Source: Stegostoma tigrinum
Lineage: Eukaryota
Assembly: GCF_030684315.1 (NCBI RefSeq)
Contig: NC_081393.1
Span: 10,489,565 to 10,553,564 of the forward strand
Reading direction: 5' to 3'
Length of the DNA stretch: 64,000 bases
A program made the position numbers and the translations under genes. Positions within the stretch are counted from its first letter, which is position 1, and every line of letters starts with the position of its first letter. Below, one piece after another: positions 2,270-62,288 of this stretch. The notes beneath the pieces are model-generated. The model searched no databases. It worked only from the letters and a program-made list of their open reading frames with translations, and had not been told where the DNA came from.

Positions 2270-3520
2270 GACATCCGTGGGTTAGCACCAAACTTGGGAG
2301 AGCTGTCTCACTGACTATTCAAGCTGCAGCCTGATACAGTCACACTCTGGAATGATACCTTACTGATGTCCCAGACAATACCATCACCATCCTTGAGTAT
2401 GTCCTTTCCCACTGGAAAGACAGATACAGCATTGGTGGTGACACAATGATTCACAGTCAGAAGGGAGTTGCCCCAGAATCCTCAACGATGATTCCAGACC
2501 CTAATATGTTACATGACATCAGGTCAAAGATGGGCAAGGAAGCCTCCTGCTTATTATCTCATGTTTTCTATTCTCCCCCACCCACCCATGACTGTTGGAG
2601 ATTAGTCATCCCAGCTCCAGGACGTCTGTGCAAGAATTCCTCAGGGAAATGTCCCAGCTCAACCATGAACTCCTTACTAATAAAATATCAGAAGTGAGGA
2701 TGTTTGCTGATGACTATATAATGTTAAGCATCATTTGCAACTCCTCAGATACTGAAGCAGTCTGTGTCCAAATGCAGCAAAATTGCTCAATATCCAGGTT
2801 TGGGTTGTCAAGTAATCTTCCCCAACAAGAGACACCTTAACCTTTACCCCTTGTCATTCAGTAGCATAACCATTGCTGAATTCACTACTATTAACAGGCT
2901 GGGGCGATGGTTAGCCAGAAATGGAACTGGGCCAACTACGTAAAGAGAATGGATAGAAGGGCAGGTCAGAGGTTGGGAATCCTGCAGCAAATAACTCAAC
3001 CACTTTATTCTCCAACGCTCTTCTACCTTCCTCAAGACACAAGTCAGGATTGTGATGGAACATGCCCATTTGATTAAATGAGTGCAGCACTGACAACAAT
3101 CAAGAAGCTCAACACCATCCAGGACAAAGCAGCCCAGTTGACTTGCGCCACATCCACAAGTATCCACTCACTTCTCCCTCACTGATGTACAGTGGCAGTA
3201 TTGAGTACCATTTACAAGATGCACTGCATAAATTCACCAAGGCTTTTCCAATAGCACCATCCAAACTCATTACCACAACCAGCTTGCAGGACAAGGGAGC
3301 ATCAGAGACACGAGAATATCACCACCTGCAAGTTCCTCTTCAAGCTACTCACCATCCAGAGCTCAAAATATTTTGGCATTCCTTCAGTGTCACAAGGTCA
3401 TAATCCTGGAACTCCCTCCCCAACAGCATATTGGATCCACCTATAGCAAACAGACTGCAAGCAGTGCAAGAAGCTTATCGCCTAGGCCAGCCAGCAATGT
3501 CCACATCCCACAAACAGATT
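2270..3520 (+). mobile_element. Degenerate, internally deleted CR1-group LINE (endonuclease, RT and 3' tail remnants)
   Basis: ORF 2595-2840 contains EVRMFADD. The 3' tail (ggccagccagcaatgtccacatccca) matches the LINE at 45990-48650. Confidence 0.8.
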
Positions 3521-10150: not shown

Positions 10151-10262
10151 CTGAAGAAGGTTGCAGACCTGAAACATCAGCCTTCCTGCTCCTCTGATGC
10201 TTCCTGGCCTGCTGTGTTCCTCCAGCTCCACAGCTTGTTATCCCAAATCTGCATGTTTGCTG
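10151..10262 (+). mobile_element. Penelope-end fragment carrying a hammerhead-like core
   Basis: CTGAAGA-AGGT-tgcag-ACCT-GAAAC-ATC followed by ccttcctgctcctctgatgct...ggcctgctgtgttc, the same end seen at 12770, 52760, 56932 and 61400. Confidence 0.7.
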
Positions 10263-11919: not shown

Positions 11920-12862
11920 ATCACCCGCAACAGAAGTAAGAACAGAGTCCCTCAGCCCTCACATACCACCCCACCAACCTCTGCATCCAACACATCATCC
12001 TCCGCCACTTCCACCACCTTCAATCTAACCCCACCACCAAAGAGGTATTTCCCTCCCCACCCCCATTTGCCTTTCATAGGGACCACTCACACAGCAACTC
12101 CCTTGTCTGCTCCATACTCCCCACCAACCCCACCACACCCGGCACCTTTCCCTGCAACTACAGGAGGTGCTACACCTGCCCCAACACCTCATCTCTGTCC
12201 AAGACTCCAAGCAATCTTTTCAAATCTGACAGCAATTCACCTGTATGCACCCCTCCCCCACAACCTGGTCTTCTGTATCCTTTGTTCCTGATGTGGTCAC
12301 CTGTACATTGGTAAGACAAGCGCAGACTCGGTGGCCGATTCATGCCACATCTGAGCTCTGTATGCTATAATTAACTACACTTCCTAGTTGCCAGCCACTT
12401 CAACTCCCCCTCCCTCTCCCTGGATGACATGTCCATCCTGGCCCTCCTCCAGTGTCACAATGATGCCACACTCAAACTGGAGGAACACCTCATCTTCTGC
12501 CTCGGATCTCACAGCCTGATGGCCTCAACATAGAATTCACCAGTTTCAAAATCTCCCCACCCCTGCCTCAATCCATGTCCAACCCTCCCTCTTATCCCTG
12601 CCTCCTTGACCTGACCCAACCTGTCCATCTTCTTTCTCACCTACCTGCCCCACCCTTCCTATTCACCATTCTCCACTGCTCCTTGCCTGCATCCACCTAC
12701 CACCGTCCCACTTACCTTCCCCCAGCACCAGCCCTGATTTATTTCTGAGTTCCCTTCCCCCTCCTCAGTCCTGATGAAGGGTGTAAACCCAAAAAGTCGA
12801 CAACCTCTGCTCCTCTGATACTGCCTGACCGGCTGAGTTCCTCCAGCTCCACACAGTATCGA
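11920..12862 (+). mobile_element. Penelope-like element 3' fragment (degenerate GIY-YIG endonuclease and terminal repeat)
   Basis: Degenerate NLVFCILCS*CGHLYIG motif; collinear with the better-preserved copy at 52075-52853. Confidence 0.85.
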
Positions 12863-13232
12863 CTATATTCTTAAAGTGTTCTGACTGGGCAGAGAGTGCA
12901 CAGTGACTGCACTTGAAGCTTGGCTTTATAGCTCTTCCTTTATGACCCTGTTATTCTCGCTTGCTGTCTCTCCCTTTCTGAGTCTCTTGTTTTGTTTTGT
13001 TTTGCTCTTGTTTCTAAATTTCTTCACCCCATGATTGGGAACTTCCACTTATCCTGGCTCTTAAATTAACTCCAGATATCCTGAATCATTTTCATCCTTG
13101 TGGTGACAATTTTTAATTTGACCAACCAGGGATCAGGTAGATGGCTGTAGCTGATCTTACATACTTCTGTCATGCCCGTTGTAGCTAAGTTTGTGTCTTC
13201 AAGGCTTTTACATTTTAAGCTTTTGTATCTTG

Positions 13233-41850: not shown

Positions 41851-44199
41851 TCTAAAACCAAAGCAGATTATTTCTTGTTTCCTGGAAAGAGAGATTTTGT
41901 TCGTTACCCTGTATTTCATGTAACATTTTATGGACGCTGTTCATTTACAGGTAGACCAATTTGCTTTTGGTCAACAAATTGAAGCAGCCAACACTGGAAC
42001 ATCACAGTGAACCTTGTCATCAATTGACTTTGAAGCAATCCTGTCATTTAACAGTTCTAGCAATGGATGAAGAATTTTCAGAAATGAAATGGATACACTA
42101 AACAAACTCAAATATTTGCTTTGTACTGAACTTGATAGTTTTTGGAAAAACTGACATGCTGTCAAAGCTTTGTGTCTTGTTCTCACCAGGATAGAACTGC
42201 AAAGATGACCACATTTCAACCAAGGAGCAACAATTTATATTGCTTGAGAACTGTGGTGATTGACTGCAAAGTGGACTCAATGAGACACTAGTTTTGGAGA
42301 AGTCAGTAATGATCCTTGGTCTTTGTTTAAATTGCTACGATGCAACCCTGGTCAACGTATTGCCATGGGGATTCCCCACTAGTTAATTTATGTTTCTTTT
42401 CTTTGAAATTTGGTATTGCAATTCAATCCTGATGAGTCAAGAGTAAAGGCATCGAAATGTCGCTTTTTACAGCAATTCACTGCAATTTTGCCTCTTAGAT
42501 TTAATGCAAGTTGGTCACGTGTTTGTTGCACTATACTTGAATACGAAAGAGAATCATGAAGAATTCTAAACTCTTGAATCTGAATAATGTCAATTATTAT
42601 GAAAAATGTCACTTAGCACATTCTAATTCAGGAGACCTGACAAAAAACTATAATCATCAACAAATATTTTGTGTTAATTGAGCATGTTGTAACTCTGCAG
42701 GAAGGAAATACTCAATGATTTCCATACACCAGACTAATGCCAACAATCTAAAAATCACAATTACCACTTGAAGCAAATCACACAGAAGTCATCTGCCTGG
42801 GGCGAAGTTGTAATTTCTAGCTACAGATTTTCCATGTGTTTGTGACCCTTTCAACAAAAGCCAAAAGATGAGTTCGATTAATATGCATCAAGACCAATTT
42901 TTAGCCATGTGTTCAACTTTCACAGGATCAGGGTAGCACCAAATATTCCCCAGAAGGCCATGCAATCCAAGAATCAACTTGTTGAAAGGAGACAAATCAA
43001 TCTTTGTGGTAATCCACATCTCAAGCATCCTTTACCTGCAGAGCAACACTTATACAACTTATGGCTCAAGCATAACTGCCCTTTGCAAAAGAAATTGTTC
43101 AGGAGATGAAGGATTAAGTTCTTGAAGATGACAAACAGTATACAAGCAGTGAGGTCATCTGGCCTTGATTAAATCTTGTCATCTGGATTGTGAACTGGCA
43201 CCGTCCTTGATTTCTTGTTAACTCTGACAGGTCCAAAAGTAGTTTGAAGGAAATATGATTTAATATTTGAAACATTTCATGAGAATATGAGCTGTGCCCT
43301 TGGGATTTGGAAGGAGAAATTTCATATGTGGCACAGTTCCAAATTCAAATACAATTCTAGCTTTTTGCTGTTCTGCAAGACTGAAAATAGTTGTAATTTT
43401 GGCACCGATCTTTTCAGAATGTCATCATACTTTAATTTGGATCGATGTAAAATTTGATTTTGCACATGTTCAACACTGAATGATTGAAGCCTGAAGTCGA
43501 ATCCTACTCCTCCCCAATATAAAATATCATGCAGATTAAAATAAATTTGAGTAGCTTCAGTAAAATTGTGCTCAGACACAATTTGAAGATGTCATTAGTA
43601 TGTTCAAGTTATTTCATGTTTAATTATCCATCTCAGCAAAGCCAAAAAAGCTTGCATTCATTCAGCATTTATTGTGAACCCAAGGTCTGCTGAAGTACTT
43701 TACAGTCAGGTACAAACCAGTTTTGACAAAGAACAATTTGATCTTGATCATATCTGCTCAGTTAGTTTGGTCACTTCCTCACACTTCAATAGGGCGACAG
43801 AGGAACTTAGCATCTCTTCATATGTTTTACAGGAAAGCTGCACCCTTAGTGCTGCACCATGGAGCCAAACTTCAGATTTGTGCTATCTTTTCTCAAGTCG
43901 TAATGCAAACCCACAGCGTTCAAACTCTAAGGTGGAGAGTACATCAACTGAGGCCTCTTTTATGTCACCTTTTTATTTACCTCAACCCCTTGCTGTTCTT
44001 TCCTGACTGATTGAGGGTGGATATCTTTCTGACTAATTTTATACTACTGAACCATTAAGACATCACCTTTTTGAAAAAAAGCATGATTGTGGCAGTGGAC
44101 CAACTTGTGTAAACGCCTGTCAATTTTCCTATAACAGATTGTCCAGCATCGGCAGTTCCTACCATCTCTATTTTCCTGCCTGTTGTCATCTTCCACGTC

Positions 44200-45989: not shown

Positions 45990-48650
45990 CTCTTCTCTGA
46001 CCAGACGGTGAAAGTACTCCTCAATGTTGAACAACACTTAGAGGAATAACTGAGGACGGCAAGGGCATAAAATGTACTCTGGTTGGGGGATTTCAATGTC
46101 CACCATCAAGAGTGGCTCAGCAGCAGTACTACTGATCGAGCTGGTTGGGTCCTAACGGGCATAGCTGCTAGACTGGGTCTGTGGCACGTGGTAAGGGAAC
46201 CAACTACAGGGAAGAGTATACTTGATCTCATCCTTACTAATCTGCCAGCTGCAGTTGCATCTGTCCATGACAGTATTGGTAAGAGTGACCATCACACAGT
46301 TGTTTTGGAGTCGAAGTCCTGCCTTCATGTTGAGAATAACTTCCATCGTATTGTGTGACACTATCACCGTGCTAAATGGGACAGGCTTCGCTCAAGACTG
46401 TGCATTCATGAGGCACTGTGGGCCATCAACAGCAGAATTGTACTTCAGCATAATCTGTAACCTCATGGCCCAGCATATCCCCCACTCAACCATTACCATC
46501 AAGCCAGGGAATCAACCCTTGTTCAATAGAGAGCGCAGGAGGGCATGCCAGGAGCAGGACCAGGCATGCCTGAAGATGAGGTATCAACCTGGTGAAGCCA
46601 CCAAACAGGACTACTTGCACACCAAACAGCAAAAGCAGCGAGTGATAAACAGAGCTAAGTGTTTCCACAACCAATGAATCATATCTAAGCTCCGCAGTCC
46701 TGCCACATCCTGAATGGCGGTGGACAGTTTAACAACTCGCTGGAGGAGGGGGCTCCACAAATATTCCCATACTCAATGATGGAAAAGCCCAGCACATCAG
46801 TGCAAAGGATAAGGCTGAAGTGTCCGCAGCCATCTTCAGCCAGAAGTGCCGAGTGGATAATCCATCTTGGCCTCCTCCAGTAGTCCCTAACTTTACAGAT
46901 ACCAGTCTTTAGCCAATTTGATTCACTCCCTGTGATGTCAAGAAACGGTAGGCGACACTGGATACTGCAATATCTATGAGTCCTGACAACATTCCGGCAA
47001 TAGTACTGAAGACTTGTCCTCCAGAACTTGCCGTTCCCTGAGCCAAGCTGTTCCAGGACAGTTACAACACTGGTATCAACCCAACAATGTGGAAAACTGC
47101 CCAAGTATGTCCCATACATAGACAGCAGGATAAATCCAACTCGGCCAATTACTGCCCCATTAGTCTACTTGCAATCATCAGTAAAGTGATGGAAGATGTC
47201 ATCAACAGTGCTAGCAAGCAGCACCTGCTCAGAGACAACAAGGTGTAGAGTTGGATGAACACAGCAGGCCAAGCTAGGTCTTGGCCTGAAACGTCAACCT
47301 TCCTGCTCCTCTGATGCTGCTTGGCCTGCTGTGTTCATCCAGCTCTACACCTTGTTATCTCAGATTCTTCAGCATCTGCAGTTCCTACTATCCCTGCTCA
47401 GAGATGCCCAGATTGGTTTCCACCAAGGCAACACAGCTCCTGACCTCATTACAGCCTTAGTTCAAACATAGTCAAAAGAGCTGAATTCCAGAGGTGAGGT
47501 GAGAGTGACAACCCTTGCTATCAAGGCTGCATTCAACTGATTGTGGCATTAAGGAGCCCTCACAAAACTGGTATCCAGGGGTGTCAGGGGACAAACTCTC
47601 TGGTGGTTGGATTCATACCTGACACATGGGAAGATGGTTGTGGTTGTTGGAGGTCAATCATCTTGGCTCCAGGGCATCTCTGCAGGAGTTCCTCAGGGTA
47701 GTGTCCTCGACCTAATCATTTTCAGCTGCTTCATCAATGACCTTCGCTCCATCATTAGGTCAGAAGTGGGGATGTTCACCGGTCATTGCACAATGTTCAG
47801 CACCACTCGTGACTCCTTAGATACTGAAGCAGTCCGTGTTCAAAAGCAGCAAGATCTGGACAGTATCCAGGCTTGTGCTGACATGTGGCTAGTGACATTC
47901 GCGCCACCCAAATGCCAGGCTTTGACCATCACCAATAAGAGAGAATCTAGCCACCACCCCTTGATATTCAATGGTGTTACCATCACCGAATATCCCACTG
48001 TCAATATCCTGTGGAGGTTATCATTGACCAGAAACTCAACTGGACTCACCATGCAATCACAGTGGCTACTAGAAGAGGCAAGAAGCTAGGAATACTGCAG
48101 CGAGTATTTCACCTGCTGACTCTTCAAACACTGTCCTCATCTACAAAGCACAAATCCACTTGCCTGGGATGGGTGCAGCCCCAACAACACTCAAGAAGCT
48201 TAACACCATCCAGGATAAAGCAGCCCGATTAATTGGCACTATATCCATAAGCATCCAGTCACTCCACCATCAACGTTCAGTAGCAGCAATGTGTACTATC
48301 TACAAGCTTCACTACGGAAATTCACCCAAGGACCTCAGACAGCACCTTCTAAACTCATGACCACTTCTATCTAGAAGGGCAAGAGCAGCAGACATATGAG
48401 AACACCACCATCTCAAAGTTCCCCTCCAAGTCACTCACCATCCTAACTTGGAAATATATCGTCGTTCCTTCACTGTTGCTAGGTTGAAATCCTAGAATTC
48501 CCTCCCTTATAGCATGGTGGATCAACCTACAGCAGGAGGACTGCAATGGTTTAAGGAGGCAGCTCAGCACCACCTTCTCAAGGGCAACTAGGGATGGGCA
48601 AGAAATGCTGGCCAGCGAGTGACGTTCACATCCCACAAATGAATAGAAAA
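45990..48650 (+). mobile_element. CR1-group LINE with APE endonuclease and RT, frameshifted
   Basis: GDFNVHHQEW...ILDLILTN...SDH (APE); GVPQGSVL..IFSCFINDL (RT); tail gggcaactagggatgggcaagaaatgctggccagc. Confidence 0.93.
47236..47392. mobile_element. Short palindromic Penelope-end element inserted in the LINE
   Basis: Arm acaaggtgtagagttggatgaacacagcaggccaagc is inverted relative to gcttggcctgctgtgttcatccagctctacaccttgt; it interrupts the LINE RT frame. Confidence 0.85.
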
Positions 48651-52075: not shown

Positions 52076-52853
52076 ACATAGTTTCACCTGCACATCTGCC
52101 AATGTGGTATACTGCATCCACTGTACCCGGTGTGGCTTCCTCTACATTGGGGAAACCAAGCGGAGGCTTGGGGACTGCTTTGTAGAACACCTCCGCTCGG
52201 TTAGCAATAAACAACTGCACCTTCCAGTCGCGAACCATTTCCACTCCCACTCCCATTCTTTAGATGACATGTCCATCATGGGCCTCCTGCAGTGCCACAA
52301 TGATGCCACCCGAAGGTTGCAGGAACAGCAACTCATATTCCGCTTGGGAACCCTGCAGCCCAATGGTATCAATGTGGACTTCACCAGCTTCAAAATCTCC
52401 CCTCCCCCCACTGCATCCCAAAACCAGCCCAGTTCGTCCCCTCCCCCCACTGCACCACACAACCAGCCCAGATCTTCCCCTCCACCCACTGCAACCCAAA
52501 ACCAGTCCAACCTGTCTCTGCCTGCCTAACCTGTTCTTCCTCTCACCCATCCCTTCCTCCCACCCCAAGCCGCACCTCCATCTCCTACCTACTAACCTCA
52601 TCCCACCTCCTTGACCTGTCCGTCTTCCCTGGACTGACCTATCCCCTCCCTACCTCCCCACCAATACTCTCCTCTCCATCTATCTTCTTTTCTCACCATC
52701 TTCGGTCCGCCTCCCCCTCTCTCCCTATTTATTCCAGAACCCTCACCTCATCCCCCTCTCTAATGAAGGGTCCAGGCCCGAAACGTCAGCTTTTGTGCTC
52801 CTGAGATGCTGCTGGGCCTGCTGTGTTTTTCCAGCCTTACATTTCATTACCTT
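52075..52853 (+). mobile_element. Penelope-like element 3' part with an uninterrupted GIY-YIG endonuclease frame
   Basis: FTCTSANVVYCIHCTRCGFLYIGETKRRLGDCFVEH...VANHF...EQQLIFRLGTLQPNGIN; pyrimidine-rich 3' region and hammerhead-like end. Confidence 0.93.
52400..52516 (+). repeat. Three ~39-bp C-rich tandem units inside the Penelope element
   Basis: Variants of cctcccccactgcatcccaaaaccagcccag repeated three times. Confidence 0.85.
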
Positions 52854-56849: not shown

Positions 56850-57024
56850 TTATCTTCTCCTCTTTATCCATCTTCGATCCGCCTCCCCCTCTCTCCCTAT
56901 TTATTTCAGAACCTCTCTCCATCCCCCTTTTCTGATGAAGGGTCGAGGCCAGAAACATCAGCTCTTGTGCTCCTAAGATGCTGCTTGGCCAGCTGTGTTC
57001 ATCCAGCTTCACACTTTGTTATTA
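56850..57024 (+). mobile_element. Penelope terminal fragment (same family as 52680-52853)
   Basis: ccatcttcgatccgcctccccctctctccctatttatttcagaacc...ctgatgaagggtcgaggccagaaacatcagc. Confidence 0.88.
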
Positions 57025-60516: not shown

Positions 60517-60935
60517 AAGACTTGCATTGAAATAGGACATTTCAAATCTTTTGGATACCATAAAACACTTTGCAGCCAATTCAATACTTTTTGAAGTGTT
60601 AGCACTATAGTAATCAATGAATGGCACAGTAAATTCCCACAAACAGGAATGTGATCATGACCAGATAGCGTGTTTTCTTGTTGTGTGACGCTGTTTGAGT
60701 GAGAAGTGTTGGCCAGGACACGAGAAAAATCCCTCCTGCTCTTTTCCAAAATAGTGCTATGCCAAGCTTCTTACCCATCATATAGAGTGGGAAGGCCTTG
60801 TTTTAGCATCTCAGCTGAAAAACAGCAACTTTAATGATGCAATGTACCCTTTTACTGTCATGAATTGTCAACATTTATTTTTGTCCTCAAGTCCTGCAGT
60901 GCAATGTAATCCCAGAATCTTAACTGAGCCACAGT
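60517..60935 (-). mobile_element. SacSINE1-like (Deu-domain) SINE
   Basis: Reverse strand reads gcactattttggaaaagagcaggaggg...gtgtcctggccaacac...ctggtcatgatcacattcctgtttgtggg...cttcaaaaagta..ttggctgcaaag...tgcaagtctt. Confidence 0.7.
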
Positions 60936-61276
60936 TTCACAGTTTCCAAATGTTAACTGGCAAGTATATTTGTCTTCCCTGGAACTGAAACAGTTAAGTG
61001 GAATGGATAGGGTCAGTTGAGAAAAACTGTCCAGGAGGAGCGGGCCATAGCACAAAAATTGAAGCTTTACCTCTCAGGTGTGAGTCCTGGAAACCCTTCT
61101 GTCTGCAAAGAATGACAGAAGACTTGAACTTTCTTCTGTGAGCAACAATTAATGTCAGATTAAATGAGAGTTTAAACCCTAAATTGATAGATTCTTGTTA
61201 ACCAAAGGTAGCAGCTGGGCAAATGTGGGCAGATTCTGGTTGCATATCAGGTATAAAGTCAATGATGGCAGAACAG

Positions 61277-61468
61277 AGATAGTAGGAACTGCCGATGCTG
61301 GAGAATATGAGATAACACAGTGTGAGGCTGGATGAACACAGCAGGCCAAGCAGCATCAGAGGAGCAGGAAAGCTTGATGTTTCAGGTCAGGACCCATCTT
61401 CAGAAATTTCTGCAGAAGGGTCCCGACCAAAACGTCACGCTTTCCTGCTCCTCTGAAGCTGCTTGGCC
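61277..61468. mobile_element. 192-bp palindromic non-autonomous element with two hammerhead-like motifs and a 14-bp TSD
   Basis: TGATGGCAGAACAG at 61263-61276 and 61469-61482; symmetry centre CAGAAATTTCTG at 61401-61412. Confidence 0.88.
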
Positions 61469-62178
61469 TGATGGCAGAACAGGCTTGAGAAGCTAAATGA
61501 CCTCCTGTTGTTTCTTGTTTTGCTGTGTCTGATAGATTTGCTGTGTGCTCCAAGAAATGTGAGCTATTTTCATGAGAATACAACATACCCTTCTCATTGA
61601 ATTGGTTTATACCAAGGTAGTGTGATCAAACATTATCACCGTATCGCAATGTCATGAGTAGATTTTGATCACATCTAGAATTTATTATTCTTGGCAAATT
61701 TCTATCGTTAATATTGCCCAGGATATAACCGTGAGATTCCACGCCAACTAAACGTGCTGCTGACAGTTTATCCGTACCATAACAGTACTTGCTCATCTCA
61801 GCATGTTTCTTGTCCATCTCTGTACTACAGTAGAAGTGATCATGCAGCATTACAAGTTATGCATATCGAATACATATGCAGCATTTCACTATGAGCTTCA
61901 CTTTGCACTTTCTAATGGAGAGAAAATAAATATTTGAAGAAAAATAGAGAACTGTGGAAAGAACAAGGTTCATTTTGGATAGCGTGAATGAAGAACCTGA
62001 AAAGATTCAGAAAATGCTGAAGAAATCCAGTAGTTCTGACAGCATCTGTGGAGAATCATCTTTGCCTTTGTTTCAGATTTCCAGCATCTTGGTTGTATAT
62101 TAGCCTGAATAGATTATTGGCTTCAAATTTCTCTGTTTTCACAAGGCCATAAGATATCTAGACTCCTACAGTTCTGAC

Positions 62179-62288
62179 TTCTTGCTGATCTCCAATTAAA
62201 ATTACTCTGCTATTCATGGACATTCCATGAATATGTCCATTCCATGTCCATGAATAGCAGAGTAATTTTAATTGGAGATCAGCAAGAA
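62179..62288. repeat. Perfect 45-bp inverted repeat with a 20-bp spacer
   Basis: 62179-62223 is the exact reverse complement of 62244-62288. Confidence 0.97.

Follow-up and report, generated by a model that had tools for sequence, protein, structure and literature searches.

How does a 192-nt palindrome with a hammerhead-like motif on either strand come to be placed between two exact copies of a 14-nt sequence, and is it copied as an element in its own right? The palindrome lies in a window of 64,000 nt from the genome of Stegostoma tigrinum (contig NC_081393.1), the whole of which was analyzed. The original prediction described it as a retrozyme-like unit, fused from two Penelope-type ends, delimited by its ribozymes, and mobilized in trans.

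Architecture of the locus

The insert and its flanks consist of the following features (positions in the window).

61263–61276, plus strand: left copy of the 14-bp target-site duplication (TSD), an exact direct repeat (100%)
61277–61407, minus strand: long (tailed) arm, the pLTR end of a Penelope-like element (PLE) from position −3 to about +127, identified by its match to family arms; same subfamily as the long copy L040:1942-2937
61277–61308, minus strand: PLE tail of 32 nt between two reverse-transcription (RT) start sites ending in TATCT(C), from bimodal arm 3′ ends and from loose ends at 61274-75 and 61309-11
61373–61406, minus strand: minimal type I hammerhead motif, decayed, with the nominal cut between 61376 and 61375, read from the sequence
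61404–61409, no strand: junction AAATTT; both arms are readable as far as the A at −3 and share AT as a 2-bp overlap (61406–61407)
61406–61468, plus strand: short (tail-less) arm ending at about +60, from the sequence and arm matches
61410–61436, plus strand: second hammerhead motif, core mutated (CUGCAGA, AAAAC)
61469–61482, plus strand: right TSD copy, an exact match to the left copy
61469–61515, plus strand: host repeat of older age, likely a 3′ tail of CR1 type, from matches at other loci and a motif that we take to be that of CR1

The predicted duplication around an insert of 192 nt is thus exact. Arm positions are counted from the C of CUGANGA as +1, with the preceding base as 0 and the nominal hammerhead cut at +28|+29. 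The arms mirror each other around 61406|61407, with inverted matches of 44 nt (91% identity) and 23 nt (87%), and the cores start at 61403 (minus strand, CTGAAGA) and 61410 (plus strand, CTGCAGA), each 3 nt from the center, which agrees with the head-to-head fusion originally described. With 130 and 62 nt, the arms are of unequal length. The short arm stops ~33 nt before the usual site at +90–98, and the next two template bases beyond its end, TG, are also the first two bases of the TSD. Upstream of the junction position, long copies of the parent read CCCCCATTT.

The TSD together with the right flank matches three other loci, one of them directly after an ORF2 C terminus that is presumably CR1-like by its motif; the left flank, compared with four loci, aligns only at shuffle level. 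Hence, a CR1 tail as host is supported on the right side only. A search for the empty site among the fetched loci gave one weak spanning match of eight. The insert has a predicted fold of −108 kcal/mol (z −11.3 and −13.3; equaled by 0 of 200 shuffles on either strand), in which the hammerhead of each strand pairs with its antisense arm, and folding of single arms gave no stable structure (z 0.3 to 2.0; four sequences). The locus is a real insertion, the shortest form of a known class, and is almost surely inert.

Further PLE-derived sequences are found in the window: a two-armed insertion (47232–47392; TSD CCTGCTCAGA) within an older LINE-like RT fragment, a tail-only insertion of ~33 nt (44135–44167) with comparable tail-only copies at L039:1483-1516 and L047:7756-7795, and four single arms (10151–10248, 12500–12870, 52500–52841, and 56880–57022), three of which have upstream pLTR or GIY-YIG-end sequence. 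A different hammerhead-like motif (42429–42465; CTGATGA, a stem, and GAAATGTC) is unrelated to the arm and likely belongs to another PLE family. Separately, an inverted repeat without mismatches (45 bp; spacer of 20 nt) occupies positions 62179–62288, in sequence that is otherwise single-copy; in the genome it matches only itself, except that 31 nt of its right flank recur exactly ~850 nt downstream, and it looks like a recent template-switch duplication.

The parent element and its copies

Compared with its own 3.2-Gb genome, the whole insert yields 4074 first-look candidates, and most of the 40 that were scored match end to end. At 30 fetched loci, the outer end of the long arm is fixed and the second arm is variable (commonly 32–34 nt shorter); the junctions differ, and every locus has its own flanks. 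To avoid query bias, a systematic sample of 132 evenly placed 10-kb stretches (1.31 Mb without N) was used. Herein, an arm was counted if it has at least 76% identity and ends at +78 or later, others being dropped before the counts, and arm ends are BLAST ends, accurate to a few nucleotides. The many related copies that had been predicted are indeed present: the sample contains 310 arms, with 79 head-to-head pairs, of which 67 consist of two short arms, and 152 arms that are unpaired under the adjacency rule. Scaled to the genome by rough extrapolation, this gives ~7.6 × 10^5 arms, 1.9 × 10^5 pairs, and 1.6 × 10^5 pairs with both arms short.

Upstream of arms lies coding sequence for reverse transcriptase (likewise RT) and GIY-YIG. 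A 200-residue RT piece finds 93,923 candidates in the genome, many within long open frames, and several of 20 such loci fetched are arm–ORF–arm units. In L185, an arm (3149–3304) is followed by an open frame of 1099 codons and a second arm; the frame matches RVT_1 (E 2e-4) and GIY-YIG (E 2e-3), both under the curated cut-offs, and has a CxxC linker between RT and endonuclease (EN). Pfam searches with four ORF fragments gave no family at 1e-3, and those with two long frames gave weak RVT_1 and GIY-YIG matches. A long copy of the subfamily of the locus, L040:1942-2937, carries GIY-YIG remnants upstream of its arm and is 92% identical over the arm query. Each arm is thereby shown to be the ordinary pLTR end of an autonomous RT + GIY-YIG PLE, and the Penelope origin originally assigned is borne out by these arm–ORF–arm elements, weak as their domain matches are.

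Two subfamilies are compared in the following, CTGAAGA, to which the locus belongs, and its sister CTGATGA, which is young and probably recently active. For the latter, more than 100 listed loci have a near-identical RT score, with open frames of up to 1130 codons.

Hammerhead motifs

Both predicted hammerhead motifs exist, and the minus-strand one is not intact as had been claimed: stem II opens with a G-U pair in place of G-C, and the helix III palindrome ACGU reads ACAU. The plus-strand motif, rightly called decayed, has the core changes CUGCAGA and AAAAC. The features of a minimal type I hammerhead (core CUGANGA...GAAA...UH, a G-C pair closing stem II, and a palindromic helix III) are present in family copies such as L185, and both window copies are degraded. 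Rfam gave nothing at gathering score in the whole window, where only sub-threshold miRNA-hairpin matches occur, and no hammerhead family at E ≤ 10 in 60800–62000.

The 5′ ends of arms accumulate at a point 4 nt upstream of the core of the hammerhead, and in this sense the arms do begin at the ribozyme boundary. This boundary lies ~31 nt upstream of the cut site; hence, the unit is not delimited by cleavage, against the original prediction, and its hammerheads would be sequestered by the antisense arm. Around the cut site itself, arm 5′ ends show a weak rise (+26 to +34; 0.96% per nt versus 0.34–0.59% alongside; 21 arms), which is also explicable by AGCT microhomology. A bias of tailed arms toward ACAT over ACGT, seen in the top matches, is gone in the systematic sample and reflects query bias.

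Head-to-tail tandems of internally deleted PLE units, with a period of ~300–445 nt and a hammerhead in each unit, were observed at L203:1270-2131, L085:4977-6181, L074:6767-8434, and L034:7458-8108. The resemblance to a retrozyme monomer is theirs and not that of the palindrome.

Recurrence of the junction

The exact 28-nt junction is present at 90 loci. It is, therefore, not unique, and it is one joint of many: when a spacer of 0–14 nt is allowed, 1093 loci are found, and among the 50 listed there are 44 distinct joints (by eye), with 4 loci having the joint of the insert. For the sister subfamily, the spacer-tolerant search finds 6242 loci, whose joints are mixed as well. Among 15 fetched loci with the exact junction, arm variants and arm lengths differ. 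In 49 pairs, arms are 91.5% identical within a pair and 86.3% between different pairs; tailed arms are 85.8% identical to each other and tail-less arms 86.7%, meaning that no side-specific lineage exists. Since junctions differ and arms lack side-specific variants, no master palindrome is spreading, and the discrete element copied as a unit in trans is not upheld. Most simply, palindromes share a junction by independent recurrence, when two cDNAs ending at the A at −3 meet on AT/AT. A few junctions contain extra arm pieces. At L013:1557-1580, a telomere-type repeat was observed as filler at the arm junction, and similar filler is seen in one further case.

Two probable start sites and one tail

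The 3′ ends of arms in the systematic sample are bimodal (+90–98 and +124–128), both ending in TATCT(C), and exactly one arm is tailed in 73 of 76 scorable pairs (p 1e-18 versus 50:50). Single arms and tail-less arms stop at the same site, +90–98. One tailed and one tail-less arm match the two RT start sites known for PLEs, for which a protein is described that nicks both strands and extends them, with RT beginning at two neighboring internal positions that border the tail; hammerhead cleavage is not required for this (PMC11167929).

A TSD-like match of 11–19 nt flanks 58 of the 76 pairs, with one mismatch tolerated and anchoring that is not strict; a match above 10 nt occurs in 0 of 76 controls. 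Within the 73 discordant pairs, the tail-less arm extends >10 nt further 5′ than the tailed arm in 24, and the 5′ ends are ≤10 nt apart in 33. Second arms as unusually short as that of the locus occur in 5 of the 30 top loci, the locus included, and are few in the systematic sample, where 2 of 34 unpaired tailed arms have a short inverted match.

A wall at the 5′ end

Among 182 arms reaching +4, 85 end at −5 to +4 (4.7% per nt), and only 8 of the 97 extending past this wall end at −30 to −6 (0.33% per nt). Single arms provide 28 of the 85 wall ends (28 of 143 single arms) and are preceded by unrelated DNA. Microhomology was considered as the cause of the wall and rejected because single arms stop there too. 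In an independent DNA sequencing run, the largest listed upstream loose end is found at the same place (370 contigs before L185:3178).

In 55 of 67 long arms, a TATTTA-type box begins 34–35 nt before the core, which puts it 30–31 nt above −3. Downstream of it, long arms read CCATTTC or CCTCTCT at the wall, which we take to fit the Inr and the TCT consensus, respectively; a CCGCTCT variant occurs in 2 of the 67. Among 100 listed matches of the CTGATGA subfamily, the nucleotide that follows genomic TT and precedes −3 is G in 40, T in 8, A in 2, and C in 50; G thus makes up 40 of the 50 non-C bases (p 1e-12 among non-C), and the internal control at +9 shows G 8, T 17, A 16, and C 59. Joints entering L185:3175 at −3 have one extra G in 4 of the 12 rows shown. 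Such a G is the expected trace of cap copying or of C addition at the template end. The CTGAAGA subfamily of the locus shows no G excess among 100 listed matches at −3 (G 11, T 14, A 3, C 72; p 0.22) and none at −4 (G 16, T 26, A 12, C 46). Judged from DNA, the wall at −3 is probably the transcription start. Apart from the wall, six arm 5′ ends are clustered at −21 to −18, just below a possible splice acceptor near −22.

Proposed twin priming with run-off and its alternatives

The insert is very likely a minimal head-to-head insertion of an RT + GIY-YIG PLE, made in what is likely one twin-priming event from two short cDNAs of the 5′ end of the sense RNA. The endonuclease would cut both target strands ~14 nt apart, giving rise to the TSD. 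One target 3′-OH would start at the distal RT site (+124–128) and yield the tailed arm, the other at the proximal site (+90–98), as in vitro precedent suggests; at the locus, the second cDNA would start near +60 on a 2-nt microhomology. Both cDNAs would point inward and run off the RNA 5′ end or stop early, and with RT sites only ~100–130 nt from a transcription start at −3, both would end there. Their ends would be joined by end-joining, at the locus via the terminal AT/AT and sometimes with filler, e.g., the telomere repeats of L013. The hammerhead would be a passenger, carried along owing to its place at the very start of the transcript, and the palindrome a dead-end product made anew at every insertion.

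Several observations do not fit this scheme readily. The G excess is absent from the subfamily of the locus itself, the short arm of the locus ends away from the canonical proximal site, 152 of 310 arms are without an adjacent partner, and a CCGCTCT variant is present in 2 of 67 long arms. In vitro, no difference in start site between the strands was reported (PMC11167929), and the asymmetry in 73 of 76 pairs is thus not predicted. Moreover, the Penelope promoter of Drosophila virilis is reported to be TATA-less and internal (PMC2377424).

Alternatives differ in which part of this scheme they replace. The shared 5′ end of the same twin-primed by-product could be due to RT stopping or trimming at the C-rich tract upstream of the hammerhead: a long pyrimidine tract starts just upstream of the wall, the start site is deduced from DNA, and the subfamily of the locus lacks the extra G. 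We consider this unlikely, as ends are not elevated within the tract (0.33% per nt at −30 to −6, like elsewhere), the TATA-like box stands at a fixed distance of 30–31 nt, and the young subfamily has its extra G exactly at −3 and not at the internal control. In the published hypothesis of self-priming on an antisense template for PLE inverted repeats (PMC3846280), one cDNA or antisense RNA would fold back at the junction and be copied. Palindromes at junctions, the likeness of arms within a pair, and the 33 of 73 discordant pairs with nearly coincident 5′ ends are in line with it. This origin is nevertheless disfavored and quite improbable: 24 of the 73 pairs have a tail-less arm that extends beyond the tailed one on the 5′ side, so that neither arm can be a copy of the other, tail-less arms share their stop at +90–98 with single arms, and the extra G is a sign that the 5′ end belongs to a sense template.

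The ribozyme-delimited, non-autonomous palindrome moved as a unit in trans could account for the full-length relatives that fill the top matches, for the recurrence of the exact junction at 90 loci, and for the few junctions with extra arm pieces, and a palindrome transcript would hold RT start sites. As the main route it is refuted, and we regard it as very improbable, given the diversity of junctions, the same joint linking arms of different sequence variants, and the absence of side-specific variants in 49 pairs; besides, its ends lie away from the cut site, it is not tandem, and both hammerheads are decayed and paired with antisense. An origin after insertion, in which a pair of longer inverted copies is reduced to a short palindrome by a local inversion or deletion, would profit from long inverted pairs, which exist and form a continuum with the short ones, but deletion would neither stop single arms at −5 to +4 nor add a G at −3, and this origin appears the most far-fetched of all. 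Twin priming with run-off is the preferred reading.

L190:3324-6976 is a long-ORF copy, flanked by a TSD of 15 bp, that starts at +18, where it adjoins a short tailed arm beginning at +3. Its 3′ arm starts at +3 and is preceded by a short A-run in place of ~150 nt of 3′ UTR. In this one example, which fits twin priming, the A-run is possibly a template jump from an RNA 5′ end to an RNA 3′ end.

We further lean, if only slightly, toward the view that PLE insertion is intrinsically two-ended: a protein dimer with two start sites ~33 nt apart would prime from both nicks at once on one capped sense RNA, and ~10^5 fossil run-off products would map the RNA 5′ end, cap included. If so, inverted pLTR, one-sided tail, and TSD would be explained in one step, antisense self-priming would be replaced, and longer copies would need multimeric RNA or a template jump.

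Comparison with known systems

EN-positive PLE insertions such as the rotifer Pen2a_Av are described with an inverted pLTR, a one-sided tail of 30–40 nt, a TSD, and putative TATA and Inr elements (PMC3846280), and a general PLE insertion scheme states the origin of the inverted repeats and one-sided tail to be unresolved (PMC8557442). The locus has the corresponding features, an inverted, 5′-truncated head-to-head copy, a 32-nt tail at one end, and a TSD, and the putative TATA and Inr lie in the pLTR likewise. In contrast to Pen2a_Av, it is without any ORF, such stubs are estimated at 1.6 × 10^5, their 5′ ends are concentrated at one position, and TSDs are mostly 13–17 nt in the present family versus 8–10 nt in the rotifer examples (PMC3846280). 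Poseidon PAc of Anolis carolinensis shares two RT sites ~30–40 nt apart downstream of a minimal hammerhead and the nicking and extension of both strands; that study draws no link to inverted insertions, reports no strand asymmetry, and does not map the RNA start (PMC11167929). In its CxxC linker between RT and EN, and in this linker only, the present parent is like Neptune/Nematis as described in PMC8557442.

The motifs of the family resemble the minimal type I hammerheads of metazoan PLEs in their core, the extra base before stem II, and the ACGU helix III (PMC4209133). Opposite-strand pairs of minimal hammerheads are described for Schistosoma at distances of 100–700 bp (PMC4209133), whereas only 6 nt separate the two motifs at the locus, both of which are decayed. 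Metazoan non-LTR retrozymes are similarly small, noncoding, hammerhead-bearing, and TSD-flanked, but they are head-to-tail tandems with canonical hammerheads that are cut into monomers and circles (PMC7229834). The locus is arranged head to head on opposite strands and is not bounded by cut sites (5′ ends at −5 to +4; cut at +28|+29); thus, two defining features of retrozymes are lacking.

In twin priming of L1, the second target nick primes on the same RNA, which results in an inversion inside the TSD. The two L1 cDNAs copy different RNA segments, whereas the present ones copy the same segment from two fixed sites, creating a palindrome.

The layout of inverted pLTR plus tail is already published. 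In the literature searched, which lay outside Repbase, Dfam, and most subscription papers, no listing gave an account of PLE twin priming or of run-off at a capped start; the supplements of PMC11167929 and PMC4209133 may show such copies.

Implications

As a single locus, the insert is ordinary. Its value lies in the population of stubs, which makes the open question of the PLE insertion mechanism testable: the stubs provide three quantitative predictions for the existing in vitro system of PAc, namely that the two target strands use the two start sites asymmetrically, that cDNAs run off at the capped 5′ end, and that they are joined by end-joining. Annotating such palindromes in shark genomes as hammerheads or MITEs would mislabel insertion by-products.
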